From the NCBI GenBank assembly GCA_022750335.1, contig JAKIVX010000002.1, forward strand, positions 53,442 through 117,441: 64,000 nt of DNA. The letters are read 5' to 3'. The position numbers and the translations under genes were made by a program. Shown piece after piece: positions 19,673 to 62,486 of the stretch (position 1 is the stretch's first letter; every line of letters begins with the position of its first letter). Source of the DNA: Thermoplasmata archaeon. GTDB taxonomy: Archaea > Thermoplasmatota > Thermoplasmata > Lutacidiplasmatales > UBA184. The notes under the pieces were generated by a model. It worked only from the letters and a program-made list of their open reading frames with translations, searched no databases and had not been told where the DNA came from.

Positions 19673-19738
19673 CCCGACACGCCGGGGTCCGACGGAAAGG
19701 TTTTCTCCCCAGTCCCGGTCCAACCGTTCGGCGATACG

Positions 19739-20155
19739 ATGGTGCGTCGATTGAAGACCGGGCCGATCCGCGTGTTGATCGCGAAACCGGGACTCGACGG
19801 CCACGACCGGGGAGCGAAGGTCGTCGCGCGAGCACTTCGCGACGCCGGCATGGAGGTCATCTACGCCGGCTTGCGACAAACGCCGGAGGAAGTCGTGCGG
19901 GCCGCGCTCGAGGAGGATGTCGACCTCATCGGGCTGTCGATCCTGTCCGGTGCCCATATGGCTCTCTTTCCGAAGATCCTCAAACTGCTGAAGGCCCAGA
20001 AGGCGGGGAACATCCCGGTCTTTGCCGGCGGGATCATCCCGGACGAGGATGCGCGGCGGCTGAAGAAACAAGGCATCCGGGCCATTTTCGGGCCGGGGAC
20101 CACGCTCCAGGAGATCGTCACCACCGCCCAGAGATTGGCGCGCGGCCCCGCATGA
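19739..20155 (+). CDS. Methylmalonyl-CoA mutase, C-terminal cobalamin-binding subunit
   Basis: ...[44 protein letters not shown]...[13 protein letters not shown]... is the B12-binding DxHxxG fold of the MCM small subunit. Confidence 0.85.
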
Positions 20156-23005: not shown

Positions 23006-23084
23006 GGCCCCGCCGAATCGGGCGGTCGCTTAAGGTTTGCTCGAGAGTGGCGCCCCCGCTCGAGAGGGGAACGGCAGGTTCGCC

Positions 23085-23933: not shown

Positions 23934-24010
23934 CGACGGCTTCTCGGGCGGGCAGCCCTTCCGTGCCCTATTCCCCCAAGTCCTTAATCTCACGGCCCGG
24001 TAGGTAGGAC

Positions 24011-45269: not shown

Positions 45270-45563
45270 ATGTTTGGTTCAGCCATGGTCAGTGTCGAGG
45301 TAGCCCACGAGAAGTGCACGGGATGCACCCACTGCCGAGATGTTTGCCCCGTGACCGTGTTCGAGATGCAGCCTCGCGAGAACTGGCCGGACGTCGTCGA
45401 CGACGCGAACGTCGCGGCGAAGTTCCAGTTCCGCGCCGAGAAATCCGCCGTGATCCACGGCCCGGACTGCATCATGTGCGAGGCGTGCCTGTTCGAGTGC
45501 GAAGGCGAGTGCATCACCATCGTCGATGACGAGGGCACCGTGCACAAGTCGACGTACAAGTAG
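45270..45563 (+). CDS. 4Fe-4S ferredoxin (2 x [4Fe-4S])
   Basis: CTGCTHCRDVCP and CIMCEACLFEC cluster motifs. Confidence 0.8.
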   Translation: MFGSAMVSVEVAHEKCTGCTHCRDVCPVTVFEMQPRENWPDVVDDANVAAKFQFRAEKSAVIHGPDCIMCEACLFECEGECITIVDDEGTVHKSTYK

Positions 45564-45643
45564 GCCGGTCGTCCTTCGCCGGCCGTCGCCGAGTTCCTTT
45601 GATCCTTCCCGTTCGGGAAGGGTGGGTCCCGTTCCGGGGACCG

Positions 45644-46627
45644 TTACACCGTGGTTAGGATCGGTCGGTAGAACGCCGTCCGGACGAGCGCCGGTCCGCC
45701 GGCGGCGGGAAAGCGCACCCGGACCGCCTGGCATCGACCGAAGGCGGTGAATTCGAGTGAGTACCAGATGGCCTCCCAGTCGCCGCCGGGGCGCTCGAAC
45801 GCCTCGCCGAAATGGTAGGTGAGGTCCATCATGCGGCTGGCCTTGCGCGCGGGCGCGTACGACCAGTCGAGGGCCTCCGCCGCCGAGTGCGGCGGGGTCG
45901 GGTGCGGGCCCCCCTCGAGCGACCCCTCGACCGTGAACGGACCGGCGGTCAGCCCCCGGCCCAGCCGATAGCGGGCCCAGGTCGTTCGGACGTGCGTGCC
46001 GTCCCGCCGCTCGGAGAGTAGCAACCACCGGAACGGGTTGCCGGTCGGTACGGGGACGGCGTCGGGCGCGAGCGCCGGCAGGTGGCGGGTGATGAAGTAC
46101 CGCCCCGCGAGTCGGATGCCGATGTAGGCCCCGTAGAACACCATGAGGCCGTAGACCGTAGCGAGGTACACGTCGAACGCGACATGGTTGCGCTCGACGC
46201 CGAGGAGGAGGTAGAAGGCCCCCACCGAGACCGCGAGGGTGAGGAAGTTGATGGCCCGGTCGGCGTCCAGTTCGAGCTTCCTCTCGGAGAAGGGGAGGAA
46301 CGGAGGCACGGAGAAGTGGGTGAACCCGTCCCCGAGGATGTGGGCGATCCCGCCCGCTTCCATCACGAGGAAGTAGATGAGGGCCGAGCCCGGAGCGAGG
46401 AGCGGTGCGACGATCGCCCCGACGAGGGCGACCACGGTGACGCCGAAGAGGGAGTGGGTGATCCCGTGGTGGCGGAGGATCGGCCAGCGCTTGGCCAACG
46501 GGAAGAAGAGCGCATCCGCGTCCGGGATCCCTCCGGCGAGGGCGCCCGCTGCGAGGTAGGACGGGTTGGGCCCGACGAGCCCGAACGTGAGCAGGTAGGC
46601 CAGTAGAACGTGGGTGAACAGGTCCAC
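45644..46627 (-). CDS. Membrane-bound metal-dependent hydrolase (YdjM/DUF457 family)
   Basis: N-terminal MDLFTHVLLAYLL... plus ...HHGITHSL... and ...HILGDGFTH... His clusters in a polytopic membrane protein. Confidence 0.6.
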   Translation of the reverse strand: MDLFTHVLLAYLLTFGLVGPNPSYLAAGALAGGIPDADALFFPLAKRWPILRHHGITHSLFGVTVVALVGAIVAPLLAPGSALIYFLVMEAGGIAHILGDGFTHFSVPPFLPFSERKLELDADRAINFLTLAVSVGAFYLLLGVERNHVAFDVYLATVYGLMVFYGAYIGIRLAGRYFITRHLPALAPDAVPVPTGNPFRWLLLSERRDGTHVRTTWARYRLGRGLTAGPFTVEGSLEGGPHPTPPHSAAEALDWSYAPARKASRMMDLTYHFGEAFERPGGDWEAIWYSLEFTAFGRCQAVRVRFPAAGGPALVRTAFYRPILTTV

Positions 46628-46642
46628 AGCCCGGCGAAGGGC

Positions 46643-46909
46643 CTAGAGCAGGCCCTCTTCCATCACCTCGACCGATTCCACGTGCGGCACCTTGGCGAGC
46701 GCATGTTCGACCGATTCGAGGACCCCGCCGGTGTCGGGCATCACGACCGAGACGAGCAGGGCCTTCAACCCGAAGGCGATGTCCTTGACCTGCATCCCCC
46801 GGAGGGTGACCCCGGAAGGGAGGGTCGCGTGGACGGCCTTGGCCACGCCTTCCATGTCGGTCTCGACGCCCTGGGGCATTAGTCGGAAGAGGACCGCCAC
46901 CTGTCCCAT
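46643..46909 (-). CDS. ef1b: Elongation factor 1-beta (aEF-1beta)
   Basis: Start at the internal ATG (MGQVAVLFRLMPQGVETDME...), 88 aa, aligning along its length to archaeal EF-1beta. Confidence 0.8.
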   Translation of the reverse strand: MGQVAVLFRLMPQGVETDMEGVAKAVHATLPSGVTLRGMQVKDIAFGLKALLVSVVMPDTGGVLESVEHALAKVPHVESVEVMEEGLL

Positions 46910-46917
46910 TGGCGCTC

Positions 46918-47091
46918 CTAGGGCCCATCGAAGCCGCACTTCGGGCAGGCGTATCCGACGGATTGGTCCCGGCACCGGGTACAGCGGCCGATCACGGCCT
47001 CCCCGCACTGGGGGCAGGGGAACTGGGTCGCGCCCGGGCTCGGTACGGCCCGGCCGCAGGAGGTGCATCGCAGGTCAGTGGTGGACTGCAT
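46918..47091 (-). CDS. Zn-ribbon protein conserved upstream of aEF-1beta (COG2888-like)
   Basis: [16 protein letters not shown]...[31 protein letters not shown] has four CxxC motifs and sits in the conserved archaeal position immediately upstream of ef1b. Confidence 0.55.
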
Positions 47092-47108: not shown

Positions 47109-47942
47109 CTACTTCTTCGAAGTGCCGCGCCGACGCGCGCCCACCCGGGCGCCGAATATAAAGAGTGCCCCGATGAACGCGACCGCGCCCGCGACGTACC
47201 ACAGCGTGTAGCTCGGCGGGGGTGCTGGGATGTAGAAGGTGACCGAGTACACGGTGGTGTCGTTCGCGAAGCGGACGAGGCCGTGGACCGTCGTGAGATA
47301 GATGGAGAACGTGTGGCTACCGGAGGAGAGCCCGAGCGTCGGGTACTGGAAGACGAACGCGTAGTTGGAATGGGGCAGCATGGTCGGGACGCTGACGTTC
47401 CCCACCACGGCGCCGTCCAGGTTGACGAGCACCGGGAACGACGTCACGCTCTGGTTGCCGATGTTGTAGAGGGTCGTGGAGAGGATGAACGGCTGAACGA
47501 CCGTCACGCTGACGCTGAAGTTCGTGGTGACGTTGGTCGTGTTCTGCGTCGACGCGAGCAGGACCGAGATGGTCAGCACTTCGCTCACGTTCGCGACGTT
47601 GAGCTTCACCTCGCCGGGGATGTTCGTCAGTATCCGCCCCGACGAGGGAGCGATCGAAACACCGGTCGTGTTCGGGCCCTGGACCGTGAGGTAGTAGGAA
47701 AGATTGCCTGTGATGGTTCCGTTCGGCGCGACCGCGGGGCCGCCCGTGCCGTTGATCACGAACGAACCGACCCCGTGGTAGGCGAGCACTTTCGGTCCGG
47801 TGATGTTGCCGGTCACGACCCCACCGTTGCCCGACGGGTTCCCGTGCGCCCCGGGCAGCGCGGGCAGGCCCGCGACGGTGCCCACGAGGAGCAGGCCGAC
47901 CAGCAGCAGGGCCCGCAGCGCGATCCTCATCGGCGCGTCCAC
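47109..47942 (-). CDS. Sequon-dense secreted surface protein with Sec signal peptide and C-terminal TM anchor plus basic tail (probable N-glycoprotein)
   Basis: [30 protein letters not shown] signal peptide. At least 12 N-X-S/T sequons in 277 aa (NIT, NGT, NGT, NLS, NTT, NVS, NTT, NVT, NFS, NQS, NVS, NDT). C-terminal ...[28 protein letters not shown]. The start overlaps the aglB stop region by 16 nt. Confidence 0.55.
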
Positions 47943-50900
47943 CTCCGGGTCTTGACCCAGCGGCGGACCAGGAGCGCGATGGCGAGTCCGATCGCGGGGA
48001 CGAACACGAGCGCCGGGATGTAGGAGGAGAGCGTAGTCGCGGTGGCGTTACCGACGTCGGGGCCGGTGACGATCAACGTCGGGCCGGAGAGGGGATTGCC
48101 GGGAGCGAGCGACCCGAGCGGGACCTTCAAGGTCGTCGACGCGGAGACGGCGCCGCTCGCATTGATCACGATCGCCGACAGGGTGACACTGCCGACGGGG
48201 ACGAAGATCGACCCGAGGGCGCTCAGGTTGAGCTCCGCGGAAGAGTTCACGCCCGGCGTGAGCCCGACGGGCCCGTTGAGGCTCCCGTTGCCGACCCGGA
48301 TGCTGATCGCCCATCCGAGCGACTCGATCCGCGATTGATCGACTATTGTCAGTCGGACGTCCTCATAGGCGTTGCCGGTGTTGACGAGGAAGAACGGCAC
48401 CAGCGCTTTGGTCGTGCTGAGGGTCGGGCCCGCGCTCGGTGTAGGCCCGATCGCGACGCCGTAGTAGGCGTGGATGTCGAGCGTGGGCCCCGGCGTGACC
48501 GTCCCCGCGATGGTGTCGTTCGCGAGCTCGAGCTCGAGGAGTACCGGCGGATGCAGCACGACCGTCCCCGCCGGCACGAGGATCGACACCTCAGCCGGGA
48601 ACGTCGCGCCGGTCGGGCCGGGCCGGAGGGTCACGTTGGTGAAGCTGAAATTGAAGGTCCAGTACGACGGGGAGCCGACGGGATGGACCGTGATCGGGGC
48701 ATTCCCCGAATCCCGGATCGTGAATTGATAGGTGACGCGCGCGCCGGCATTGATCGTCTGGGTCGGGGAGCCGACGAGCGTCCCGGTCGCCCGATAGTTG
48801 AAGGAGTACGCGAGCGAGACGTTGAGGGCGACGTTGCCGGATGCCACGGTGAGGACGGAGGTTCCCGAGGCGTTCGTGGGCACTCCGTAGGGAGAGCCGA
48901 CCGCCGACGCCGTGACGGTGTAGACGCCGACCGGGAGGGCGAGGGAGAACGGGACCCCGACGGGGAGTCCGGTGTACACGGATTGAGTGCCGAACACGGT
49001 CTGGACGACGACCGTCGCCGGACCCAGCGAGGCCGCCGAGCCGTTCGGGCCGGAGACGGTGACGGTCGTGCTCCAGGTGGGGCGCAGGTTGACCGAGACG
49101 GGCGCAGCACCGGGCAGGGCGAACACGCTGGTCAGGTTCGCGAGGGGTTCCGAACCACCGCCGGCCGTCGCGTACAGGGAGTACGCTCCCGGGGCCAGCG
49201 CGACCGAGAACGTTCCGTTCGAGGTGTTGAGGAGCGTGACGGTGGTGGCCGGATACGGGCCTACCAAGCGCAGGGACCCGGGTTGGAGGCCGGGGACCCC
49301 AACCGCCGACAGCGTTCCGTTGAGCCACACTGAGTTGACGGTCGGGACGACCTCGAGCGGGCAACTCGAGGCGTTCTCGGTGGTTTCACACACGACCGTC
49401 GAGGGGATCGAATAGCTGACGAAGTAGCTCCCGTTCGATCCGGCGGTGAGGAGCGTCCCGTTCGCGGACGCAAAGAAGAGGGTGTCGGCCGGCAGAGTCG
49501 TGGAGAACGAACCGTTCACGACGGCGGTCCGGAGGGTTGACCCGTTGGACGTTCGGAGCGTCAGGGTCGTGTTGAGCTTGACCAACGAGCCCTCTTGGGT
49601 GAGGAGTGTGCCGGTCGTCGAGACCCCGAGCGTGCGGAGGGAGATCGAGGGCGTGATCGCGCCGGAACCGCTCACGCTCACCCGGACGAGGCTCGCGTAG
49701 GTGACTCCCGCGACCACCTCGGATGCGTGCGCGGTGTACGTCCCGGGAGCCGTGTAGAATCCCTTCGTGTAGTTCTTGCCGTTGACGGTGATGTTGAACC
49801 CCGGCGAGGAGAGGGCCACCGTCGCGTTGGCGAGCGTTCCTCCACTCGGGAGCAGGAGGGTGCCGGTCGAGTTGATCCCCGGCACGAGATGCAGGGTCAG
49901 GTTCGACGAGTAGGCACCCAACGGGATGGTCGTGTTCAGGAGGGACGAGGGGAGGTAGACGACCGTCCCGCTACCAATCACCGCACGGGCCGAGACGGTG
50001 TAGGGTCCGGGGGTCGTCGTGAAGGAGAAGACCGGGCCCCCGATCAGTTGGTGGGAGATTGCGGGAGCGCCGAGAGAGGTGAGGTTCACGGTGACCGAGG
50101 TCCCGGAAGGGAGCCCGACGACCGACAGCTGGACGTTGACGGGTCGAAGGGAGAGGACGAGGCGATTCATTGAGGCGAGTCCTGGACCGGTCAGCCCGCA
50201 CTCCGAAGCGGGAAGGAATCCGGCCGACTGGACTCGGACACAGTAGCCGCCGGCCGATAGGGGGATCGTGCTCGGCACGTAGTACGCGACCGTGCCGTTG
50301 AAAGAGGCGAGGGACGGCAGGGTGGGACCGTTCGGCCCCGCCGAGAGGGAGACCGCGGCCGCGATGGCGGGGAAGAGTGTGCCGTCCGACTGCGGGGTTC
50401 CGACGGTGAACCGCGTCGCGACGGCCCCGACCGGCGCGAGCGGCAGGACGGTGGGGAAGAACAGCGACACCTGGGTGAGCGCGGCGGAGATCGACGCGAG
50501 CCCCGTGGAGGGGCCCTCGAGCGCGAGGACCGTGTAGTTCCCGAGGGGGAGGAGGACGGAGTAGGCTCCGCCCGCCGCAGCCCACGTCGTCACCTCGCCG
50601 TACCCGAGCCCGTATACGAGAACGGCTGTCTTCGACGAATTGAAGCCCCCCGTCGTGGCCACCGTGCCCGAAAGGCGAGCGGTGGTCCCCAGGGCGAGCG
50701 GCGTCAGCGAGGTCGGCAGTCCGGGGAACGCTGACACGCTCGTGAGGGCCGACTCGAGGGAGTTGCCCACGTAGCCGAGCGCGTAGACCGAGTAGTTTCC
50801 GATCGGGAGGGTCGCGGTCACGACGCCCGAACCGCTCGACGTAACGACCGTTCCGTTGCTCGTCGAACTCTCCAGGGCCGCGAGCGGCGACTCGGAAGCA

Positions 50901-53900
50901 TTCGGGAAGCTCGGAAGGGGGGCGAACCGGACGGGGACGTTCGCGACTCCCACTCCGTTAGCCTCGACCAAGAACTGGACCGTGGCCGTCGGCTGGACGG
51001 AGAGGTTGGTCTCCACCGACGATCCGGGGGCGGAGATCGCGACCCTCACGCCGGCAGAGCGCTGATTGAGCAGGGGCCCGGAGGCGACGAGAGTGTAATT
51101 GCCCGGGCCGATCCCCGAGATGGTGTAATTGCCGGTGGAGTTGGTGGTGTAGGCTCCGACCGAGCCGTTGGAACTCGACGCCGTGACGACTGACCCGCCC
51201 ACCGGCAGGCCCCCCGAGAGGACCACTCCGGAAAGCACCGCCGGAGCGAGGCCGACCGAGCCATTGGCCATGCCGCCCGGGTTGAGGAACTGCCCCGACT
51301 CGGAGTAGTTGTGCCCGGCATACAGGATGCTGTAGTTGTACACCCCCGGAACGACCGACGGCAGGTTGAACGTGCCGTCCCGGTCGGTGGTGGCCGTCAC
51401 GGCGGTCTGGCCCGTGCTTCCCCACAGGACCGCTTGGGCACCGGCGACGAGCAGGTCCCGGTTGGGGTCGTAGGTGGAGTTGTTCGCGATGTTCCAGTAG
51501 ACCGTGCCGCTGAACTGCGAGGATCCGAGCTGGACGGGCAGCGTCAGCGTCGGCGCGTCGAATCCAAGCCCGTAGGAGTTCGGGACGTACACCTGGAGGC
51601 TGCGCAGCGAGACCGTACCCTGTTGTTTCAGGCCGTCAATTGAGCCGGACGTGAAGTTCAGGGTATCATTCCCGGGGGGGAGGACGAGGGTGTAGGACCC
51701 GTCCGAAGCGGTCACCGTCGTCATGTGGGGAATCCCCCACTGGTCGAAGGCGGTCACGCGGATTCCGGCGGCGGGCGTGCCGTCGGCCAGGTGGACGGTT
51801 CCGACCACCGTTTGACCGGGGTAGTACTCCAGGATCGATTCGCCGCCCTGGAAATAGCGGAAGTTGCTCGTGTTCGCGACGGCCCCCGTGGTCGCCTTGG
51901 CCTGCGCCACGGCGGCCGGCAGGTTGTCTGCGAGGCAGTTCGATGAGTTGTCGTCCGCCTTCGTCGGGCAATAGTACGCCGTGCGATAGACGACTTCGAA
52001 GTGCTGGAGCATCCATCCCGGCTCGACAGGGGAGTTTTGGAGGTTGGTCGAGAGGCCCGGGATCCCGCCCTGGGACTGGCCGATCTCGGTTCCGTTGTAC
52101 CCGATGTAGGTCCGGTAGATCATCGACTGGTAGAACGGCCCAAAATAATTGATGTTGTACTGCTCGGCCGTCACGTCCGCGGGAACCTGCCCGAGGGGGT
52201 AGGTGTTGCCGTCCGAGCCGAGGACCGTTACGTTGAAGAAAGAGGACGGGAGGCCGGCGGTGTCGATGACGCGGCCGGTCAGGTCGGCGGGAGCGTAGAA
52301 GATCCCCGTGTCCTGGCCGCTGAAGGGGAAGAGCCGGCTGTCGGTCATGTCGTAGCGGATCGACCACCCCGTGTACGCCTGCAGGTCGTCGTAGACCTTC
52401 GCCACCCCGGTCAGGGTGAGGGCGGATCCGATGTAGTACGAGGTCGCGAGGTACATCGCATTGTCGTCCGTCAGGGTCGAGGCGTCCACGGGGAGGTAGC
52501 GCGTGGGATTAGCGACGACCAAGGTGTAATCCGCGCTCTCGTTCGAGAGCAGCGTGTGCAGCCGCGTCAGGTTGAGCCCGTCGCGGGCGAGGATCACGTT
52601 GAGCGACGTGGGCAGGTACGGCTCGCCGCTCTTCGTCTGCTCGGCCTGGAGCAGGGTGGTCGCCAGGACCCCGATCGCGTTGGATTCGTTCTGGGCGAGG
52701 AGGAACTGACCGGCCGGGTCGATCCCGTTTTGGAAATTGTCCGCGACACTGGGATGGTCGCCCTGATCGATCGCCTGGAACCCATAGTCCCACCAGCTGA
52801 CGAAAGCGGGACGGTTGGGGGCGGGCGTATTCGTATCCTGGGTGGCCAACCAGTTGTATCCGGCGCTGTCGTATTGGTTGGGCGTGTCGAGGGACGTGCC
52901 GGCGGCGCCGAAGTAGGCGTTGGACGCCCCCACGGTGGAGCTTGGCTGGAGCCACGAGGGCAGCGAGTTCGCGACCTGGACCGAGAACCCGGACTTCGTG
53001 TTGCCCGGAATGCCCGCGTCGATGGAGATCCAGATGTTCGGGAGGATGAGTCCGACCACGAGCAGCATGATGAGGACGTGGCGGATCTTGAACGCGCGGC
53101 GGAACGCCGAGAGCTGGCTCCGGCGGTCGGAGAGGGACGCGACCGTACGGCGCAGTTCCGGGTAGCCGGCCACATCGAGGGCCCGCCGGAGCCCTTCGGC
53201 CGGAAGGAGTGCGAACGCGGGCGAGCCGAGCAGGAAGAACTTCGCGGCCGAGATCGGGAGGTAGATCGAGAGGATCGAGAAGACGAGGAAGACCGCGGTC
53301 GCTCGGGGGAATTTTCCTCGGACGAGCTGGACCGCGAACAGGACCACGCCGACGAAAGCGAGGAAGAAGGTGATCACTCCGTACCCGACGACCAGCTCGT
53401 CGATGGACGGGGCCTGGGCCTCGGCGACGGTCGAGTAGATGAGGTTCTTGACGAAGTAGCCCTGGCCGGTGACGATGCTCGTGAAGTAATCCGGACTGAT
53501 GACCGCGAGCGCGACGGCCGCGAGCGCCACCTCGCCGACCAGGACGGGAATCGAGAGGACCCACGGGGAGTCCCGCAGCATCAGGAACGGTAGGAGGAGG
53601 AGGAGCACGCCGAAGAAGAGGAGCAGCGGGAGCCCGAACCAGATGGCGAACTGGTTCTGGGCGAGGTAGTACGGAATGGCCATCGGGAAGCCGACGAGCC
53701 CGACGATCCACATCGAGACGTACAGGCCGAACGAATCGACGCGGCGGATGCGCTCCGCGATGAGGAGGATGAGCACCGAGAGGGCGATGACGACGACCCC
53801 GTACGTGTACCCCTGCCAGGCCAACGCAAGCGCGCCCAAGCTGACCCCCGTGAAGACCGCCCATTTCACGGCCGAGCGTTCGGTCCGCAGGAACGTTCGG

Positions 53901-54526
53901 ACGCCCTGGTAGAACTGCTTCGGGTCCCGGTACGAGCCGACGTACCGGTTCCTGCCGACCGCCTTGACCGTCCGGATCCAGGAGTAGAGTACGATCAGGA
54001 TGAGGAAGGTGTAGAACGAGAGGTAGTTGGCATAACCAAAGATGGACGAATTGATACTGGCCGGCAGGAAGGGGAAGATCATGGCCGCGATGAGGCCCAT
54101 CCGGCGGGAGCTGACCTCCTTCCCGACGAGGTACACGGGGAAGACCGTCAGCGCCGCCCACAGGGGACCCTGGAGCTCAAGGAACCAGGCGCCCGCCTCG
54201 ATGGCGTTCCCGCCGAAGAACGGCGCGAACAGGATCCCGAGGATGGCGTTCATCCAATCGAACAGCGGCTCCCGCGGGTTGATCGCCCCGAACGGGAACT
54301 TGAGCATCGGGTCGTGGATGAGATTCGCGTGGGTCAGAATGATGTACGTCGTGACGCGCGAGTGGTAGTACGAGTCCGAGCCGCCGGCGTAGGTGTAGAG
54401 AGCGCCCCATTGCTGGACGACCGGGAACGTCCAGACGGTCCGGACGAGGAAGGCCGAGGCGAAGGCGCCCAGCAGGATGGCGACGGTCCAGATGTTGCGG
54501 CGCCACCACCCTGAGGTCGACTGCAT
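47927..54526 (-). CDS. aglB: Oligosaccharyltransferase AglB (STT3 family) fused to a giant C-terminal extracellular extension of about 1300 aa, with a terminal TM anchor
   Basis: 2199-aa uninterrupted ORF. The N-terminal ~560 aa hold the multi-TM STT3 membrane domain. The catalytic periplasmic domain carries ...FVSWWDYGFQAIDQG... (the WWDYG motif). After about residue 900, tandem transthyretin/CarboxypepD_reg-like repeats (pattern G.V.L.DGTPAAG..V.........TASDGSY.L.LPPGNYTL) hold several dozen NxS/T sequons. The C-terminus ...[25 protein letters not shown] is a TM anchor plus basic tail. A GTATAAATAG TATA box sits about 50 nt upstream. Confidence 0.85.
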   Translation of the reverse strand: MQSTSGWWRRNIWTVAILLGAFASAFLVRTVWTFPVVQQWGALYTYAGGSDSYYHSRVTTYIILTHANLIHDPMLKFPFGAINPREPLFDWMNAILGILFAPFFGGNAIEAGAWFLELQGPLWAALTVFPVYLVGKEVSSRRMGLIAAMIFPFLPASINSSIFGYANYLSFYTFLILIVLYSWIRTVKAVGRNRYVGSYRDPKQFYQGVRTFLRTERSAVKWAVFTGVSLGALALAWQGYTYGVVVIALSVLILLIAERIRRVDSFGLYVSMWIVGLVGFPMAIPYYLAQNQFAIWFGLPLLLFFGVLLLLLPFLMLRDSPWVLSIPVLVGEVALAAVALAVISPDYFTSIVTGQGYFVKNLIYSTVAEAQAPSIDELVVGYGVITFFLAFVGVVLFAVQLVRGKFPRATAVFLVFSILSIYLPISAAKFFLLGSPAFALLPAEGLRRALDVAGYPELRRTVASLSDRRSQLSAFRRAFKIRHVLIMLLVVGLILPNIWISIDAGIPGNTKSGFSVQVANSLPSWLQPSSTVGASNAYFGAAGTSLDTPNQYDSAGYNWLATQDTNTPAPNRPAFVSWWDYGFQAIDQGDHPSVADNFQNGIDPAGQFLLAQNESNAIGVLATTLLQAEQTKSGEPYLPTSLNVILARDGLNLTRLHTLLSNESADYTLVVANPTRYLPVDASTLTDDNAMYLATSYYIGSALTLTGVAKVYDDLQAYTGWSIRYDMTDSRLFPFSGQDTGIFYAPADLTGRVIDTAGLPSSFFNVTVLGSDGNTYPLGQVPADVTAEQYNINYFGPFYQSMIYRTYIGYNGTEIGQSQGGIPGLSTNLQNSPVEPGWMLQHFEVVYRTAYYCPTKADDNSSNCLADNLPAAVAQAKATTGAVANTSNFRYFQGGESILEYYPGQTVVGTVHLADGTPAAGIRVTAFDQWGIPHMTTVTASDGSYTLVLPPGNDTLNFTSGSIDGLKQQGTVSLRSLQVYVPNSYGLGFDAPTLTLPVQLGSSQFSGTVYWNIANNSTYDPNRDLLVAGAQAVLWGSTGQTAVTATTDRDGTFNLPSVVPGVYNYSILYAGHNYSESGQFLNPGGMANGSVGLAPAVLSGVVLSGGLPVGGSVVTASSSNGSVGAYTTNSTGNYTISGIGPGNYTLVASGPLLNQRSAGVRVAISAPGSSVETNLSVQPTATVQFLVEANGVGVANVPVRFAPLPSFPNASESPLAALESSTSNGTVVTSSGSGVVTATLPIGNYSVYALGYVGNSLESALTSVSAFPGLPTSLTPLALGTTARLSGTVATTGGFNSSKTAVLVYGLGYGEVTTWAAAGGAYSVLLPLGNYTVLALEGPSTGLASISAALTQVSLFFPTVLPLAPVGAVATRFTVGTPQSDGTLFPAIAAAVSLSAGPNGPTLPSLASFNGTVAYYVPSTIPLSAGGYCVRVQSAGFLPASECGLTGPGLASMNRLVLSLRPVNVQLSVVGLPSGTSVTVNLTSLGAPAISHQLIGGPVFSFTTTPGPYTVSARAVIGSGTVVYLPSSLLNTTIPLGAYSSNLTLHLVPGINSTGTLLLPSGGTLANATVALSSPGFNITVNGKNYTKGFYTAPGTYTAHASEVVAGVTYASLVRVSVSGSGAITPSISLRTLGVSTTGTLLTQEGSLVKLNTTLTLRTSNGSTLRTAVVNGSFSTTLPADTLFFASANGTLLTAGSNGSYFVSYSIPSTVVCETTENASSCPLEVVPTVNSVWLNGTLSAVGVPGLQPGSLRLVGPYPATTVTLLNTSNGTFSVALAPGAYSLYATAGGGSEPLANLTSVFALPGAAPVSVNLRPTWSTTVTVSGPNGSAASLGPATVVVQTVFGTQSVYTGLPVGVPFSLALPVGVYTVTASAVGSPYGVPTNASGTSVLTVASGNVALNVSLAYSFNYRATGTLVGSPTQTINAGARVTYQFTIRDSGNAPITVHPVGSPSYWTFNFSFTNVTLRPGPTGATFPAEVSILVPAGTVVLHPPVLLELELANDTIAGTVTPGPTLDIHAYYGVAIGPTPSAGPTLSTTKALVPFFLVNTGNAYEDVRLTIVDQSRIESLGWAISIRVGNGSLNGPVGLTPGVNSSAELNLSALGSIFVPVGSVTLSAIVINASGAVSASTTLKVPLGSLAPGNPLSGPTLIVTGPDVGNATATTLSSYIPALVFVPAIGLAIALLVRRWVKTRRWTRR

Positions 54527-54638: not shown

Positions 54639-55163
54639 TCAGTCGTCCGCGCGGAACCGGTAGAACCAACGTCCGTCGCCGATGTCGAACGATTCTAGGC
54701 GAACCGACTGTCCGATCCGGAGCTCGGTCCACGCCCGACCTTCGATGCGACCGAACAGGCGGAGCGGGACGCCGTCCAGGTCGACAAGGCCGACCGCGAA
54801 CGGAACGTCGCTTTCCATCCCCAGGGGCGCGCCTCCGAGGACCGCGCTGAACGCGTAGATCCGACCCCGTTCGGGAAGGTCGACCCAATCAACGTCCTCG
54901 GTGTGGCAACCGGGACATGCGGTTCGGGGCGGCCAGAGGAGCACTCCTTCCTGGACACAACGGGTCGTGGAGACCCGGCCTTCTTTGAGCCGCTCGAAGA
55001 AGCGTGACAGTCGAGTCTGGTCGGCCGTCTCGAGGGGGAAGAAGTCCAGCAGGAACGGCTTCTTTTCCCGGGGACGGGATGTCGGATCCGGGCTGGGGAC
55101 CGGCTCCGGTGTCGGTGCCGCGAGGGTGGGTGTGGGCCGTCGGGGGCGGGCCTCAGCGCTCAT
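54639..55163 (-). CDS. DUF35 OB-fold/zinc-ribbon protein (thiolase/HMG-CoA-synthase complex scaffold-type)
   Basis: Start overlaps the thiolase stop (ATGA). ...TTRCVQEGVLLWPPRTACPGC... rubredoxin-like Zn ribbon followed by an OB fold ...GRIYAFSAV...FAVGLVDLDGVPLRLFGRI.... Pro-rich N-terminal tail. Confidence 0.75.
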   Translation of the reverse strand: MSAEARPRRPTPTLAAPTPEPVPSPDPTSRPREKKPFLLDFFPLETADQTRLSRFFERLKEGRVSTTRCVQEGVLLWPPRTACPGCHTEDVDWVDLPERGRIYAFSAVLGGAPLGMESDVPFAVGLVDLDGVPLRLFGRIEGRAWTELRIGQSVRLESFDIGDGRWFYRFRADD

Positions 55164-56344
55164 GCGGCCCCTCCCCGCTGGTAGATCATCACCGAGTGGA
55201 CGTTTGCGCTGCCCGACAGGTTGTGGACGAGGCCCCATTCGGGGTCCGGTACGGTCCGAGCCGCCGGGGCTGCGCCCGACATCTGGCGGTAGACCTCCAC
55301 AGCCTGGGCGATCCCGGTCGCCCCGAGTGGATGGCCACATCCTAGCAGACCGCCGCGGGGGTTCACGACGAGTTTCCCGCCGATATCCCCTTGACCCTCC
55401 GAAGCGAACGGGCCGCCTTTGCCGGGCTCGGCCCATCCGAACATCTCGTACTCGACGATCTCGGAGATCGTGAAGCAGTCGTGGATCTCGGCGAAGTCGA
55501 CGTCGTCCGGTCCGATACCGGCCCGTCCGAACGCTTCTCGGGCGGCGTGTTTGAGGCCGACCCAATCGGTCAGGGACCCCGCGTTGGCGAGGTTGTGGAA
55601 ATCCGAGTACTGTCCCGTTCCCCGGATCCAGGCGGGCCGGTCCGTGTACGCCCGCGCTCGGTCGGCCGCGACCAACACGACCGCGGCGGCCCCGTCGGTC
55701 ATGGAAGAGCAGTCACCGAGCCGCAACGGAGGGGCGACGAGGGGGAGGCGCGCGAGCTTCTCGCGGGAGAAGGTCTTCTCATAAAACTGCGCTTCGGGGT
55801 TCGAGTTCGCGAATCGGTGGTTCTTCTCGGAGACAGCAGCGAGCTGGTCGTCCGTGGTCCCATACTCGAGCTGGTGGCGCTGGGCCACCATCGCGAAGAA
55901 GGGAGGGGCGGTGGCCCCGTGCGGACCATCCCAGGCCCGGTCCATGACGCTCGCCATGGCCGTGTTGGCTTCGGCCATCGACGGTAAGTTCATCTTCTCG
56001 ACTCCGACGGCGACCGCCACGTCCGAAAGGCCCGACGCGATCGCGGCGTAGGCCGACCGGATCGCGGACTGGCCGGACGCACACGCGAGCTCGGTGCGCT
56101 GGATGATGCGGTGCGGACGGAGGCCCATTTGTTCGGCGGCGAACGGCGCCACGTGGGATTGGAAGGCGAACCGCTCTGGTTCCGCGGCCCCCAAGAAGAG
56201 CGAATCGACGTCCTCGGACCGGAGTTCGGGGACCGACCGGAACAGCGCGACACCGATCTCCTGGGCGAGTTCGGCCCAAGTCGATGCGCGGACCCCGAAC
56301 TTGGTCGTCGCCCCCCCCACCAGGGCCACGTCCCGGACGTTCAT
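55160..56344 (-). CDS. Thiolase, SCP2/archaeal type (acetyl-CoA acetyltransferase-like; DUF35 partner)
   Basis: ...ELACASGQSAI... catalytic Cys context of SCP-x type thiolases. C-terminal ...GCGHPLGATG... and ...NLSGSANVHS.... 394 aa. Confidence 0.8.
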   Translation of the reverse strand: MNVRDVALVGGATTKFGVRASTWAELAQEIGVALFRSVPELRSEDVDSLFLGAAEPERFAFQSHVAPFAAEQMGLRPHRIIQRTELACASGQSAIRSAYAAIASGLSDVAVAVGVEKMNLPSMAEANTAMASVMDRAWDGPHGATAPPFFAMVAQRHQLEYGTTDDQLAAVSEKNHRFANSNPEAQFYEKTFSREKLARLPLVAPPLRLGDCSSMTDGAAAVVLVAADRARAYTDRPAWIRGTGQYSDFHNLANAGSLTDWVGLKHAAREAFGRAGIGPDDVDFAEIHDCFTISEIVEYEMFGWAEPGKGGPFASEGQGDIGGKLVVNPRGGLLGCGHPLGATGIAQAVEVYRQMSGAAPAARTVPDPEWGLVHNLSGSANVHSVMIYQRGGAA

Positions 56345-57474
56345 GCCGGCTCCTCCCGCAGGGCGGCGACGACCCGGTCACCGGCTTCGGACGTGGTGGC
56401 CGTGCCCCCTTGGTCGTAGGTACCGGAACCGCCCCGCGCGAGCACGCGCGCGAGGGTGCGCTCCAGACGGTCGGCCTGGGCGAGGAGGCGCGCATCCTGA
56501 TGACGCCCGCCCAACCAGCGGAGCATCTGTTCGACGGCGAAGAACGTGGCGAACGGGTTCACCTGATTCTTCCCCGCGTACTTCGGGGCCGAACCGTGAA
56601 CAGGTTCGAACATCCCGTGGTCGGTCCCAATGTTGCCACCAGAGGCGAATCCCATACCGCCCTGGAGGACGGAAGCGAGGTCGGTCACGATGTCCCCCAT
56701 CATGTTGGTCGTAACCGCGACGTTGTACCGCTCGGGGTTGCGAACGAGCCACTGGGTGAAGGCGTCGACGTAGGCGTAATCGCGCTCGATCTCCGGATAC
56801 TCCTTCGAGACGCGATCGTACGTTTCCCGAAAGAACCGGCAGCCTTCCATCACGTTCGATTTGTCGATGCAGGTCACGCGCTTCACTCCGTCGCCCGGTG
56901 CCCCCCGGGAGCGATGGCGGGCGAGCTCGAACGCGTAGCGGATGACCCGTTCCGAGCCTTTTCGGGTAATGATCCGTGTGTCGACGGCGACCTCGGTCTC
57001 GCCGCCTCGTCGAAGGCGCCCGCGCGCCGGCGTGTAGAGGTCCTCCGTGTTCTCACGGATGATCACCATGTCCACGAACTTCGGTGACCAGACCTCGCGA
57101 TACTCCCCACTGATCCGGTGCCGGACTCCCGGGTACAGCCGACAGGGTCGTACGTTGGCGAACAGGTCAAGCCCCTCTCGCAGCCCGAGCACCAAGGCGC
57201 GGCCGGCGAGGTCTCCGTTGGGAAGCGACGCGCCCGGCCATCCGACCGCCCCGAGAAGGATCGCGTCGGCCGTTCGAGAGGCAGCTTCGGCCTCGGGTTC
57301 CCACTCGCGTCCCGTCTTGAGGTAGTACTGTCCTCCGCCAGGATACTCGGTGAGGTGCCAGGGAGCGGCGCCCCCTTCCGCCAGGCCATCCAGGACCTTG
57401 CGCCCTTCGCGTAAGACCTCCGGACCGGTACCGTCCCCGGGGAAAACGGCGATCTCGTAACCGGCGTCCTTCAT
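56341..57474 (-). CDS. leuB: 3-isopropylmalate dehydrogenase-family beta-decarboxylating dehydrogenase (LeuB; possibly homoisocitrate or tartrate DH-like)
   Basis: N-terminal ...YEIAVFPGDGTGPEV..., ...IRENTEDLY..., ...GDIVTDLAS...GSAPKYAGKN.... Operon context with leuCD and leuA. Confidence 0.75.
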   Translation of the reverse strand: MKDAGYEIAVFPGDGTGPEVLREGRKVLDGLAEGGAAPWHLTEYPGGGQYYLKTGREWEPEAEAASRTADAILLGAVGWPGASLPNGDLAGRALVLGLREGLDLFANVRPCRLYPGVRHRISGEYREVWSPKFVDMVIIRENTEDLYTPARGRLRRGGETEVAVDTRIITRKGSERVIRYAFELARHRSRGAPGDGVKRVTCIDKSNVMEGCRFFRETYDRVSKEYPEIERDYAYVDAFTQWLVRNPERYNVAVTTNMMGDIVTDLASVLQGGMGFASGGNIGTDHGMFEPVHGSAPKYAGKNQVNPFATFFAVEQMLRWLGGRHQDARLLAQADRLERTLARVLARGGSGTYDQGGTATTSEAGDRVVAALREEPA

Positions 57475-57995
57475 GCCGCTCCGGCCGCGGCCTTGCGGGC
57501 CTCGAGCTCCGCCCGGACCTTTTCGACCAGACCGCCGGCCTCGAGCAGGTCGAGCAGGTGGTGGGGGAGGGGTGGGAAGGTAACGAAGGCCCCTGTACGC
57601 AGGTTCGTGATGCGACCCGCGGACATCTCGATCCGTGCGGTATCGCCCTTCTCGAAGATCCGCCGCACCCCTTTCGCCTCGACGGTGGGGATCCCGAGGT
57701 TGATCGCGTTCCGGTAGAAGATTCGGGCGAACGAGTCGGCGAGCACGGCGCCGACCCCGATGGCCCGCATCGCTTGGGGTGCATGTTCGCGGCTCGACCC
57801 ACAGGCGAAGTTTTCCTCGGCGACGATGATGTCCCCCGCCCGTGCCTCCGCGGCGAATTCGGGCAGCGCGATCTCAAAGACGTGCTTCTTGAGCTCGTTG
57901 GGGTCGATGATCGTGAGGTACTTTCCCGAGATGATCTGGTCGGTGTCGACGTCGGTGCCCAGCACCCACACCCGCCCTTCGATGACGTCCTTCAT
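57471..57995 (-). CDS. leuD: 3-isopropylmalate/homoaconitate dehydratase small subunit (archaeal LeuD type)
   Basis: ...VWVLGTDVDTDQIISGKYL..., ...NFACGSSREHAP.... 174 aa. Confidence 0.85.
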   Translation of the reverse strand: MKDVIEGRVWVLGTDVDTDQIISGKYLTIIDPNELKKHVFEIALPEFAAEARAGDIIVAEENFACGSSREHAPQAMRAIGVGAVLADSFARIFYRNAINLGIPTVEAKGVRRIFEKGDTARIEMSAGRITNLRTGAFVTFPPLPHHLLDLLEAGGLVEKVRAELEARKAAAGAA

Positions 57996-58003
57996 GGCCT
58001 CCT

Positions 58004-59283
58004 CTACATCAGGTCGCGCGGGTCGGTGAGCTCGCCTCGGATCGCCGCCGCGACGGTCGCCGCCGGCGAGAGGAGGTAGATCCGGGCCTCCTTCGCGCCC
58101 ATGCGGCCGGGGAAGTTTCGGTTCGAGGATGAGGCGCAGACCTCCTCGGGGGCGAGGATGCCCATGTTCCCGCCAAAGCAGGCGGAGCAGCTCGAGTTGG
58201 TGAAGACGGCGCCGGCCTCAGTGAACGTCTCGATGATCCCTTCGGCGAGACATTGCTGGTAGATCTTGGTGGACGCGGGCGATACGATGAACCGGACGCC
58301 GGGCGCCACCTTGTGCCCCTTCATCATGGCCGCGCCCTCGCGCAGGTCCTCGATACGAGCGTTCGTGCAGGACCCGAGGAAGACCTGGTCGACCCGGACG
58401 TGCTCCCGGACCACGTCGGGAAGGGGTCGGACGTTGTCCGGCGAGTAGGGACACGCCACCATCGGGGGCATGTCGGTGACGTCGATATCGATGACCCGCT
58501 CGTACGTCGCGTCCGCGTCCGAGAGCAGCGGGTGCATCGAGTGCTTCGCGATGGGTCGGAGGTAGTCGAATGTGGTCTCATCGGGCGCCACCATCCCGGT
58601 CTTGGCGCCCATCTCGGTCGTCATGTTGCAGATCGTGAACCGTTCGGGCATCGAGAGCGCGGCGATGGTCGGGCCGGTGAACTCGACGGCCTTGTACGTC
58701 GCCCCCGTGGTCTTGACCTCTCCCAGGATTCGGAGAATGAGGTCCTTGGCGAACACGCCGGGACCGAACGTTCCGCGGACCCGGACCTGGATTGTCGGGG
58801 GCACCTTCAGCCACAGCCGTCCCAGGGCCAGCACGGCCGCCATCTCGGTCGGGCCGATGCCCGCCGCCACGGCGCCCATCGCCCCGAGCATGTTCGTATG
58901 CGAATCGGTGCCGACCGCGAGGTCTCCCGGAACCACCCAACCGTTCTCGGCGAGGATCTGGTGGCAGATCCCGTGGTTCCCGACATCGTAAAAGTGCGGC
59001 AGGTGGGTCTCGGCTGCGAACTTTCGGAGGATGCGGTGGAGGACGGCGGCGCCTTCCGTGGAGGCCGGCACCCAGTGGTCGATCGCGATCACGACGCGGT
59101 CGGGGTCCCAGACCGTCTCGGCCCCCATCTGGTGGAATGGCAGGACTGTTTGGGCGCCTTGCTCGTGCATCATCGCGAGGTCAACATTCCCCTCGACGAT
59201 CTGGCCCGGGACCACGTGGTCGAGCCCCCCCGCGCGTGCGAGGATCTTCTCGGCCATGTTCATGCCGTGCCCGTTCGACGCGG

Positions 59284-59287
<4 letters not shown>
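58004..59287 (-). CDS. leuC: 3-isopropylmalate/homoaconitate dehydratase large subunit (LeuC, aconitase family)
   Basis: ...MAEKIL..., Fe-S ligands in ...GSCTNARIED... and ...NSSCSACFGG.... Start may be at MNMAEK (59263). Confidence 0.85.
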
Positions 59288-60543
<1,256 letters not shown>

Positions 60544-60625
60544 CCGTCGAGCCGCATTAACCTTTGTCGCGATGCGGGGCCGATTCTTCGGCGGAGGCGA
60601 CGTGCTAACGCTCGCGTGGCATCAG

Positions 60626-60637
60626 TACTTAAATACC
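60626..60637 (+). promoter_or_regulatory. TATA-like box (TACTTAAATACC) in the divergent leuA/korA intergenic region
   Basis: About 55 nt upstream of the korA ATG. A second AT-rich element (AAAGGTTAATG on the minus strand, about 60556..60566) lies 15-20 nt upstream of the leuA start. Confidence 0.35.
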
Positions 60638-60691
60638 GTCCCGTGCTGAAACGCAGTGCACGTCGCGTTCGACGGTAATTCGAGGATTCAC

Positions 60692-62485
60692 ATGACCACC
60701 CCCGCAGCCAAAACGACCCCGATTCCGGAGATGTCCGGCGCCGCCGCTCCGCGCACGCCCCCGCAGTTGTCCGACGTGAGTGTGATGATCGGTGGGCAGG
60801 GGGGCGACGGCACCCTGACCGTATCGGACCTCTTGGGCCGGTACTTCCGCAAGCGGGGCCTCTACGTCTACCTCTCGCGCAACGTCCTCTCCCGGATCCG
60901 CGGCGGTCATGCGGACGCGTCGGTCCGCGGCAGCCGCGCGGCGGTCGCGGCCGTCAAGACGGAGGTGGACGTGCTCGTCGCGTTCGACAAGGAAGCCATC
61001 GAGATCGGTAAGGGTGAACTCGCCGCCCACGGGTACATCCTCTACGATTCGACCACGTTCCAGGTCGACCTGCCGAACGCCACCGGCTTCCCGTTCGCTA
61101 CCCTCGTCGGCGGCCCGCTCGGTCAACCGATCTTCAAGAACACCGCGGCGTACGGGGCGTTGAGCGTCATCTTCGGGTTCGATCCCACGGAGACCCGGGC
61201 GGTCATCGAAGAGCGGTTCAAGCGCCGGGGCGGCGAAGCCCTCGAAAAGAACCTCAAGGCGCTCGAGATCGGGCGGAAGGCCGCCCTCGAAACGCCCGGC
61301 CTTGCCGATCGCTTCTCGATCGCGGACGGGGACGCGCACGATTTCATCATGACGACCGGCAACCAGGCGGCCGCGATGGGGTTCGTCGTGGGTGGCGGAC
61401 GGTTTTTCGCCGGTTACCCGATCACTCCCGCGACCGAGATCATGGAGTACCTCCAGCGCTACCTTCCCGCCTTCCACGGTGTGGTCCGGCAGGCCGAGGA
61501 CGAGCTGGCGGCCGTCAACATGATCATCGGTGCTTCGTACGCCGGGGCCCGGGTCATGACCTCCACGAGCGGCCCCGGACTTTCGTTGATGACCGAGGGG
61601 ATCGGTCACGCCGGAGCGGCGGAGATCCCGATCGTCATCGCCGACTGCCAGCGTGTGGGGCCTTCCACGGGCCAGCCGACGCGGCACGAGCAGTCCGACC
61701 TCTCCCATCTCGCCAACCTCGGGCACGGCGAGTTCCCCCGGTTCATCCTCGCGCCCGGGACGCCGGAGGAATGTTTCCTCCTGACTGCGGAGGCCCTCAA
61801 TCTGGCTGAACGCTGGCGCCTTCCCGTCATCCTCCTGCTGGACGAGGCCCTGTGCCAGAATGCCACGACCAGCCGACGGTTCGAGCTCGACAAGGTCCAC
61901 ATCGACCGCGGGGAGCGCCTGACCGGCGAGGCCGCGGCCGCGCTCACCCAATACAAGGCCTACGCGTTCTCGGAATCGGGCCGCTCGGCCTATGCCCCAC
62001 CGGGGACCCCGGGCATCTGGGCGGAGATCACGGGCAACGAGCACGACGAGTGGGGACACGTGAACGTCAATCCGACGAACCGCGTGCGGATGATGAAAAA
62101 GCGGATGGAGAAGATGGTGAAGGCCCGGGACGAGCTTCCGTCGGCCAACCACTTCGGGTCCACCGACGCGAAGATCGGGATCATCGCGTTCGGGAGCACG
62201 ATCGGTCCGGTGCGGGAGGCCCACGGACTCCTGACGGCCAAGGGAACGGCAGTTCAGATCCTCCAACCCCGGACGCTCTTCCCCGTGCCGGTGCACGAGA
62301 TCGACCCATTCTTGAAATCGGTCGATGTGTGCTACGTCATCGAGCACAACTACACGGGTCAGTTCGCGCGCCTCCTCCGAGAGACCATGCCCTGGCATCA
62401 CACGAAGCTGCGGTCCCTGACCAAGTACGACGGCACGAACTTCCGCGCCCCCCAGGTCGTCGCGGGGATCCAAGGAGGTCCGTAA
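60692..62485 (+). CDS. korA: 2-oxoacid:ferredoxin oxidoreductase alpha subunit (fused gamma+alpha, two-subunit OFOR type)
   Basis: N-terminal gamma-like domain ...MIGGQGGDGTLT... then alpha domain ...GYPITPATEIMEYL..., ...GPSTGQPTRHEQSDL.... 597 aa. ATG at 60692. Confidence 0.85.
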   Translation: MTTPAAKTTPIPEMSGAAAPRTPPQLSDVSVMIGGQGGDGTLTVSDLLGRYFRKRGLYVYLSRNVLSRIRGGHADASVRGSRAAVAAVKTEVDVLVAFDKEAIEIGKGELAAHGYILYDSTTFQVDLPNATGFPFATLVGGPLGQPIFKNTAAYGALSVIFGFDPTETRAVIEERFKRRGGEALEKNLKALEIGRKAALETPGLADRFSIADGDAHDFIMTTGNQAAAMGFVVGGGRFFAGYPITPATEIMEYLQRYLPAFHGVVRQAEDELAAVNMIIGASYAGARVMTSTSGPGLSLMTEGIGHAGAAEIPIVIADCQRVGPSTGQPTRHEQSDLSHLANLGHGEFPRFILAPGTPEECFLLTAEALNLAERWRLPVILLLDEALCQNATTSRRFELDKVHIDRGERLTGEAAAALTQYKAYAFSESGRSAYAPPGTPGIWAEITGNEHDEWGHVNVNPTNRVRMMKKRMEKMVKARDELPSANHFGSTDAKIGIIAFGSTIGPVREAHGLLTAKGTAVQILQPRTLFPVPVHEIDPFLKSVDVCYVIEHNYTGQFARLLRETMPWHHTKLRSLTKYDGTNFRAPQVVAGIQGGP

Positions 62486-62486
62486 G

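Follow-up and report, generated by a model that had tools for sequence, protein, structure and literature searches.

The window analysed in this work is a stretch of 64,000 nucleotides from a Thermoplasmata archaeon (contig JAKIVX010000002.1), and its central element is a giant aglB gene which encodes a homologue of the archaeal oligosaccharyltransferase (OST) AglB, followed by an overlapping gene for a small membrane protein, here called the partner (Table 1). Archaeal AglB is generally regarded as a single-subunit enzyme of roughly 600-1000 residues. The product of the gene in the window, referred to below as the window giant, has an N-terminal STT3/AglB core, a long chain of predicted extracellular beta-sandwich domains and a C-terminal transmembrane (TM) helix with a basic tail. 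The GC content at the third codon positions of the gene (0.89) matches that of the real genes in this 67% GC window.

Table 1. Features of the giant aglB locus and of other genes in the window (aa, residues of the encoded protein; positions are those of the window).
Feature	Position	Strand	Basis or remark
Giant aglB gene	47927..54526	(-)	Single open reading frame, ATG start, 2199 codons plus stop, no internal stop
STT3 membrane domain, aa 1-505	53012..54526	(-)	Pfam STT3, hydropathy peaks, AfAglB-L profile alignment, Foldseek
D51 in GGSDSYYH, first catalytic Asp (AfAglB D47 equivalent), external loop 1	54374..54376	(-)	Invariant in 51 superfamily sequences
N167-Y168-L169, replacing the D-H-D/D-H-H second metal-binding motif (AfAglB D161-H162-H163)	54020..54028	(-)	Superfamily alignment
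T366-V-A-E369, TIXE motif of external loop 5	53420..53431	(-)	E369 invariant; aligns to AfAglB TIAE
K429, replacing the conserved Arg of the (A)RF motif	53240..53242	(-)	Clade-specific switch
Extracellular catalytic globular domain, aa 506-900	51827..53011	(-)	Weak Pfam AglB_core-like match; WWDYG
WWDYG, aa 578-582	52781..52795	(-)	Invariant in 79/79 loci
Array of ~11 prealbumin/transthyretin-like beta-sandwich domains, aa ~903-1908	48803..51820	(-)	Pfam (first three), AlphaFold
Two tentative CARDB/DUF11-like beta-sandwich domains, aa ~1909-2140	48107..48802	(-)	N-x-G-N motif in each; faint Pfam support
Low-confidence linker, aa 2141-2168	48023..48106	(-)	pLDDT <50
C-terminal TM helix, aa 2169-2190	47957..48022	(-)	Hydropathy 2.44 (hydrophobic stretch aa 2169-2187); helix in AlphaFold model
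Cytoplasmic Arg/Trp tail and stop	47927..47956	(-)	Sequence read; tail conserved in 66 loci
Shine-Dalgarno-like site GGAGGTGG for the partner	47939..47946	(-)	9 nt upstream of the partner start, in the aglB ..RRW.. codons
Partner gene, 273 aa	47109..47930	(-)	ATG overlaps the aglB TGA as ATGA
EF-1beta, 141 aa	46643-47068	(-)	EF1_GNE domain at aa 59-137 only
YdjM-family membrane protein	45644-46627	(-)	86% identical in related locus L001
NAD-dependent sugar epimerase/dehydratase	25041-25988	(-)	Glycan-assembly cluster
GT4 glycosyltransferase	24011-25054	(+)	Glycan-assembly cluster
GT2 glycosyltransferase	23085-23993	(-)	Glycan-assembly cluster
321-aa open reading frame, no Pfam match	22040-23005	(-)	Adjoins the glycan-assembly cluster

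The AglB core of the window giant spans residues 1 to about 900. Its membrane domain contains about 13 TM helices, with WWRR preceding the first helix and the N-terminus in the cytoplasm, and matches Pfam STT3 (PF02516) over residues 45-443 (E = 3e-9; 37.3 bits against a cut-off of 24.5). The globular domain gave a weak AglB_core-like Pfam match at residues 573-621. The best-scoring curated family is NCBIfam TIGR04154 (archaeo_STT3), the archaeosortase A-associated STT3 of haloarchaeal and methanogen AglB, which aligns to residues 16-950. However, the window giant is not a member of this family, since it scores 213.6 bits against a cut-off of 450. It has no PGF-CTERM sorting signal either: its tail, ..YIPALVFVPAIGLAIALLVRRW.., lacks PGF and gave no NCBIfam PGF-CTERM match.

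Among proteins of known structure, AglB-L of Archaeoglobus fulgidus (AfAglB-L; 3WAJ, 3WAK, 5GMY and 7E9S) was the best match by both profile and fold. The alignment with a superfamily profile covers residues 3-489 of AfAglB-L (whole-chain E = 2e-35), and a Foldseek search with the membrane part returned AfAglB-L first (7e9s, 3wak; E = 1e-13), followed by STT3A/B and PglB. The AlphaFold model of residues 1-1100 behind this search has a mean predicted local distance difference test (pLDDT) score of 60, with the WWDYG domain below 50, and was used solely for the fold match of the membrane domain. The two proteins share the 13-TM STT3 domain, the first catalytic Asp (GGSDSYYH in the window giant aligns with GGNDPWYY in AfAglB), the TIXE and WWDYG motifs, and a C-terminal beta-sandwich unit, which in AfAglB-L aligns weakly, below significance, to one domain of the array. 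While AfAglB-L has about 870 residues, one membrane domain and no second anchor, the window giant has 2199 residues and two anchors. To our knowledge, there is no dedicated partner gene for AfAglB-L.

We then compared the gene with its relatives in other genomes. An exact match to the window giant was found in the databases in a Thermoplasmata metagenome-assembled genome (MAG), on a 131-kb contig. More than 120 protein clusters are 53-85% identical to it, and nearly all of them are 2178-2211 residues long, with two slightly shorter entries of 2109 and 2135 residues. In a scan of one genome per species, at least 552 genomes encode a relative, and the best 79 loci, from separate species genomes, contain about 60 full-length copies. 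All 79 are from Thermoplasmata MAGs (one labelled only Methanobacteriota), and because Candidatus Lutacidiplasma silvani is among them, the host is an acid-soil Thermoplasmata archaeon that falls within the order Lutacidiplasmatales, previously called TMEG or UBA184, or close to it. The databases name these proteins "carboxypeptidase regulatory-like domain-containing", "STT3 domain-containing" or "hypothetical".

These data bear directly on whether an assembly or annotation artefact has joined an OST gene to a separate surface-protein gene, for which nothing speaks beyond the unusual length of the open reading frame (ORF). The same uninterrupted length is shared by more than 120 independent clusters and by about 60 species genomes, which come from many studies and were built with many assemblers; distant relatives at 22-42% identity are likewise uninterrupted. 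We consider the chance of such an artefact to be negligible, and misassembly and frameshift were ruled out by these comparative data. Thus, the near-constant length of the clusters and the relatives in at least 552 species genomes indicate that the giant aglB is one genuine uninterrupted gene, neither frameshift nor chimera. The initial annotation of the window had proposed a single polypeptide of 2199 residues with an N-terminal STT3/AglB core, and had set ORF continuity as a test beforehand; the uninterrupted ORF, the Pfam STT3 and AfAglB profile matches and the comparison across genomes bear it out on both counts.

Beyond the core, an AlphaFold model of residues 1000-2199, built from 37 sequences, has a mean pLDDT of 82.9 and is all-beta until the disordered linker and the terminal helix. 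Pfam recognises CarboxypepD_reg (PF13620; 72.1 bits against a gathering score of 32.3) in three stretches, the best at residues 906-964, which correspond to the first three extracellular domains (residues ~906-1170), and the beta-sandwich nature of the later array domains comes from the AlphaFold model only. The number and boundaries of the array domains were read from the strand pattern of the secondary-structure string and from the recurrence of P-x-G-x-Y-x-V motifs; the array also carries two conserved Cys pairs. The assignment of the last two domains as CARDB/DUF11-like is tentative, with weak matches to DUF7507, NPCBM_assoc and choice_anch_T, and N1939/G1941/N1942 and N2049/G2051/N2052 in these domains are nearly invariant in the superfamily alignment. 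When the array was compared with the PDB by Foldseek, only generic Ig, macroglobulin (MG) and pilin chains were returned.

In 36 homologues, identity to the window protein is 65-91% in the STT3 part and 41-80% in the C-terminal part, with both parts in register and very few indels. As judged from this alignment, the array is a fixed-length chain of diverged structured domains and not a variable tandem repeat. The extension had been described as about 1300 residues of tandem CarboxypepD_reg-like repeats. About 1,250 residues of all-beta domains were indeed found, but the Pfam assignment holds for the first three domains only, and the description as tandem repeats has to be replaced by that of a fixed-length array. 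The same data argue against an adhesin, that is, an array which binds soil particles, polysaccharides or cells and to which the STT3 part is incidental. Even though the fold resembles pilins, adhesins and macroglobulin-type chains and CARDB-like domains are present, length and register are constant across hundreds of species with no variation in repeat number, both ends of the protein are membrane-tethered, and the gene is apparently single-copy among housekeeping genes, while adhesins usually vary fast. We therefore consider an adhesin very unlikely.

In the STT3 family the N-terminus is in the cytoplasm and the domain that follows TM13 is outside. Since the profile alignment to AfAglB residues 3-489 fits this topology, the array would be extracellular, and the last helix would return the basic tail to the cytoplasm. 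The giant is thus predicted to be tethered in the membrane at both ends, as had been proposed initially, and the terminal helix is kept in distant giants. The conservation of the Arg/Trp tail cannot be read purely as a protein signal, because the same codons hold the Shine-Dalgarno-like site and overlap the start of the partner gene; from this overlap, part of the conservation is attributable to dual coding.

The extracellular part is also rich in N-X-S/T sequons. The giant has 54 sequons, and 46 of them are in residues 901-2160, where 15 would be expected from composition; in this region 67% of the Asn residues fall within sequons. The 36 homologues have 29-45 sequons where 11-15 are expected; in their alignment, at least 90% of the sequences share a sequon at each of 12 columns. 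These counts showed that the enrichment is about threefold and conserved, in agreement with the several dozen sequons noted in the initial annotation. Self-glycosylation of the array and an S-layer-like role, as suggested in the initial annotation, are putative.

To place the giant within its family, we searched the whole library by HMMER with residues 1-900. The search returned 707 clusters (at 50% identity) with E <=1e-3, 267 of them with E <1e-30, and the named matches were all from Thermoplasmata or Thermoplasmatota MAGs. Most of the matches at 29-42% identity are 2000-2800 residues long. Of 13 distant giants examined, 12 have a TM helix and a basic tail at the C-terminus, so that the second anchor is kept in giants that are 22-42% identical; the exception is P0245, whose terminal hydrophobic stretch is weaker and PGF-like. 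A PGF-like motif was seen directly before the last hydrophobic segment in P0164, P0188 and P0245 (IPGFE, VPGFD and LPGFE; loci L085 and L086), and the C-terminal anchor of these three proteins, unlike that of the window giant, may be processed by an archaeosortase.

The superfamily also includes short Thermoplasmatota STT3-CarboxypepD_reg proteins of 1090-1300 residues (P0264, for example), which are 29-34% identical and have only a few prealbumin-like domains after the catalytic domain. The short forms examined (P0248, P0259 and P0264) have no C-terminal TM anchor, whereas the window giant has one. On these comparisons, giant size (2000-2800 residues) and a C-terminal anchor are the norm in the wider Thermoplasmata STT3 superfamily, which can be read as a graded series from ordinary long AglBs such as AfAglB-L, through forms of 1,100-1,300 residues, to the giants. 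The architecture is therefore not the rarity for which it was taken at first but the rule in this large superfamily. On the other hand, the statement that no characterised AglB of such architecture is known still stands: our literature searches found no description of a giant AglB, of an AglB accessory subunit, or of an N-Y-L/Lys active-site variant, and the Lutacidiplasmatales genome paper and its supplements mention neither glycosylation nor STT3.

Three further systems resemble the giant in part. NOMO (Nodal modulator, of the BOS complex; 9C7V) has 12 prealbumin-like domains followed by one TM helix and no STT3. It was the strongest non-OST match of the superfamily profile in the PDB (E = 1e-34), and Pfam NOMO-type domain models match the giant faintly. 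We asked whether the giant has a specific evolutionary tie to NOMO and to the translocon of eukaryotes and ruled this out, as one two-domain stretch of the profile matches four NOMO segments; by this pattern the likeness is at the level of the domain family, and the arrays are not collinear homologues. The S-layer glycoprotein of the Haloferax volcanii type is a string of Ig-like domains with heavy N-glycosylation and a C-terminal membrane or lipid anchor. The likeness of the giant to it is architectural only, with no sequence or fold match ranked when the array was compared with the PDB by Foldseek. The giant differs from it in that PGF-CTERM is absent and the domains are covalently joined to an enzyme, and an S-layer-like lattice is conjecture. 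Finally, in the eukaryotic OST (STT3 with ribophorins, OST48 and others) a catalytic STT3 is accompanied by beta-rich, non-catalytic lumenal parts and by a small membrane subunit. The likeness goes no further than analogy, and unlike in the multi-subunit enzyme, most of the extra mass of the window giant is in cis.

The initial annotation missed two features of the locus, the translationally coupled partner and the loss of the second metal-binding motif. The partner protein begins with a signal/TM segment and ends with a TM helix and a basic tail; between them is a sequon-rich ectodomain made up of one filamin-like Ig domain and one CARDB domain. Pfam CARDB (PF07705) matched the window partner at the cut-off (22.7 bits at 22.7) and is therefore borderline there; the partners of distant giants match CARDB above the weak level, and the partner profile matches the CARDB structures 3idu, 2kl6 and 2l0d as well as filamin-like Ig domains in the PDB. 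The aglB stop codon is overlapped by ATG or GTG in 61 of 66 related loci. A partner gene of 253-269 codons also follows five distant giants (24-30% identical over the full length and 33-42% in the STT3 part), and in all five its start overlaps the end of aglB, even though the neighbouring genes and the GC content (33-44%) are unrelated. In P0188 (2667 residues) there is no separate partner, and the last 289 residues are a homologue of the partner (hhalign probability 99.7%, E = 8e-27), and the junction consists of two TM helices with a basic loop between them, which preserves the topology. This is the only true fusion of AglB and partner that was found. Across the giants the partner has 250-290 residues. 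It was absent behind the 2747-residue giant P0202 and behind P0264, the sole short form examined in this respect. We also asked by BLASTP whether the partner is homologous to the C-terminal domains of the giant itself, or fused in P0202, and found nothing significant. Because the coupling is kept across contexts and the two genes are fused in P0188, there is strong evidence from these comparisons that the giant AglB and the partner work together.

The partner and the fixed array could also be understood as an OST accessory apparatus built into the enzyme, in which both act in the manner of the non-catalytic lumenal subunits of the eukaryotic OST: they would stabilise the enzyme and retain or present nascent chains that emerge from the Sec translocon, and there would be no cell coat. 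The constant number and register of the domains would fit such an apparatus, as would a dedicated small subunit that is co-translated and sometimes fused, the C-terminal beta-sandwich unit already borne by AfAglB-L (which aligns below significance to an array domain), and the graded series provided by the 1090-1300-residue forms with few such domains. However, a chain of 13 domains, more than 40 sequons and a second anchor far exceed the needs of substrate handling, and neither the Foldseek search of the PDB with the array nor the profile search of the PDB with the partner detected similarity to any known OST subunit. We consider this reading unlikely as it stands, but it overlaps with the explanation that we prefer and is not exclusive of it.

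The loss of the second metal-binding motif makes the catalytic competence of the giant a real question. A second D-x-D or D-x-H motif was looked for in the window giant, and N167-Y168-L169 was found in its place. In the alignment of 51 superfamily sequences, Asp occupies the first and third positions of the motif in 37 (D-H-D in 35), N-Y-L is found in 8, and the remaining 6 differ in other ways; branches elsewhere in the superfamily show further variants such as GYD, RHR and RMH. D-H-D is replaced in the window protein and in its relatives down to about 40% identity in the STT3 domain, and GYANYL was read in 65 of the 76 species loci. The only alternative to Asn at position 167 is Asp, found in 6 loci. 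Position 429 is Lys in 8 of 8 clade sequences and in all 76 loci read, versus Arg in 37 of 37 others. When a clade-specific switch was defined as a residue found in 8/8 clade sequences with the alternative in at least 35/37 others, the only clean switches in the first 900 residues were D-H-D to N-Y-L, Arg to Lys-429, and the conservative I367V, M423L and A434G. Most of the short forms retain D-H-D and the Arg, in contrast to the window giant. At residue 159 (54049-54051), most of the clade has Asp (IDSS in 53 of about 73 loci) and the window protein has Asn (INSS), so that an N-S-S sequon arises next to the altered metal site.

These replacements raise the possibility of a pseudo-enzyme, in which the STT3 module of the clade has lost transferase activity and is kept as an anchor or sequon-binding module of a structural surface glycoprotein, while another OST does the glycosylation. 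It is supported by the clade-specific switches, of which D-H-D to N-Y-L and Arg to Lys are the cleanest, and the missing Asp at position 159 of the window giant and an NCBIfam score far under the subfamily cut-off also speak for it. On the other side, D51, the TVAE motif with E369 and WWDYG do not vary across at least 70 species, and conservation is higher in the STT3 part than in the array. The replacement residues are themselves fixed, and the alternation of D and N at position 167 is compatible with a working site. When a short Thermoplasmatota STT3 was used as query, only 87 clusters were returned, and none of the named ones carries the locus-tag prefix of a MAG that holds a giant, which is weak evidence against a second OST in these genomes. 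We therefore judge the loss of activity to be improbable. As the replacement is co-ordinated and conserved, the other catalytic motifs are kept, and the STT3 part is under more constraint than the array, the active site of the clade is most likely remodelled but still functional rather than decaying, and the window giant is probably an active AglB.

Taken together, the explanation that we prefer, and that we think somewhat probable on balance, is that of a self-glycosylated, doubly anchored giant AglB with a co-translated subunit, in which the extension serves as coat or spacer and as scaffold. In this explanation, insertion of the STT3 module would come first and leave its N-terminus cytoplasmic. 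Export of the long tail would follow, with N-glycosylation by its own catalytic domain or by neighbouring copies, and the last helix would re-enter the membrane. On a cell that probably has no conventional wall, the array would then form a glycosylated loop or stalk. The partner, translated together with aglB, would bind as a stoichiometric subunit, and the extension would probably act both as a coat or spacer at the surface and as a scaffold for the enzyme. A glycan-assembly cluster at 22040-25988, about 22 kb from aglB on the same contig, is counted in support.

Several points weigh against this explanation. The residues aligned to the AfAglB metal ligands D161 and H163 are the non-acidic N167 and L169, the mostly acidic position 159 is Asn, and the conserved Arg of AfAglB-L is Lys-429, so that the canonical metal-dependent mechanism is not assured. 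The DK/MI motif of the Ser/Thr pocket was not located in the catalytic globular domain, which is poorly modelled (pLDDT <50). The geometry between the array domains is modelled with a predicted TM-score (pTM) of 0.48, so the shape of a stalk or loop is inferred. The neighbourhood is syntenic within the order (leuB, thiolase, a DUF35-type (ChsH2 OB/zinc-ribbon) protein, aglB, partner, EF-1beta and YdjM), and the conservation of the partner there could partly reflect general conservation of gene order; the distant giants, which keep the partner in unrelated contexts, argue against this as the full account. A bolder proposal would be a Thermoplasmata OST holo-complex, composed of a giant AglB whose heavily N-glycosylated and doubly anchored Ig-like stalk makes up a large share of the envelope of cells without a wall, and of the first dedicated archaeal OST subunit known, with a site that in the Lutacidiplasmatales-type clade works without the canonical D-x-D/H ligands and perhaps has a different donor or metal need. 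We regard this proposal as possible but doubtful.

Some other genes of the window were also noted. Upstream of aglB, the genes at 55160-60543 (-) and 60656-63353 (+) encode, in this order, a thiolase and DUF35-type (ChsH2 OB/zinc-ribbon) pair, an isopropylmalate/isocitrate dehydrogenase, both subunits (small and large) of an aconitase-family dehydratase, an HMGL-like (homocitrate/isopropylmalate) synthase and a two-subunit 2-oxoacid:ferredoxin oxidoreductase. The gene order from 55160 to 63353 is conserved across the order. On the other side of aglB, a 549-aa ORF at 45279..46928 (-), rich in Arg, Gly and Pro, was rejected as a wrong-frame artefact of high GC content, the real genes being EF-1beta and YdjM. 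Many window ORFs of 200-550 aa that overlap real genes are likewise spurious. In the distant locus L084, a separate gene of 56 aa for ribosomal aS21 lies just upstream of an EF-1beta of 89 aa. Since the EF1_GNE domain covers residues 59-137 only and the two genes are separate in L084, the first 58 residues of the window EF-1beta ORF may be a mis-extended start or a merged small gene. The 704-aa ORF at 19003-21117 (+) matches MeaB, the GTPase associated with methylmalonyl-CoA mutase, over residues 405-667 only. Pfam recognises no domain in its first 400 residues, and these may result from a start called too far upstream or from fusion to another domain. Outside the window, a phage-sheath-like (contractile injection system) gene was seen about 1 kb downstream of the aglB gene of P0202 (L080/L081, 17222-18649), on a Thermoplasmata contig of 42% GC.

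The giant AglB is real, widespread and uncharacterised; it is less singular than was thought at first, and more interesting through its partner and its altered active site. If our explanation is true, the design space of oligosaccharyltransferases would be broadened by an environmentally abundant lineage in which AglB comes with a second anchor, a dedicated partner and covalently joined glycosylated surface domains that amount to about 1,250 residues. The replacement of D-H-D by N-Y-L and of Arg by Lys is a natural experiment on the STT3 metal-binding site that is open to mutagenesis, and the graded series of AglB proteins bears on how non-catalytic modules were added to OSTs. The giant AglB is a concrete candidate for an envelope component of these uncultured, probably wall-less soil archaea.

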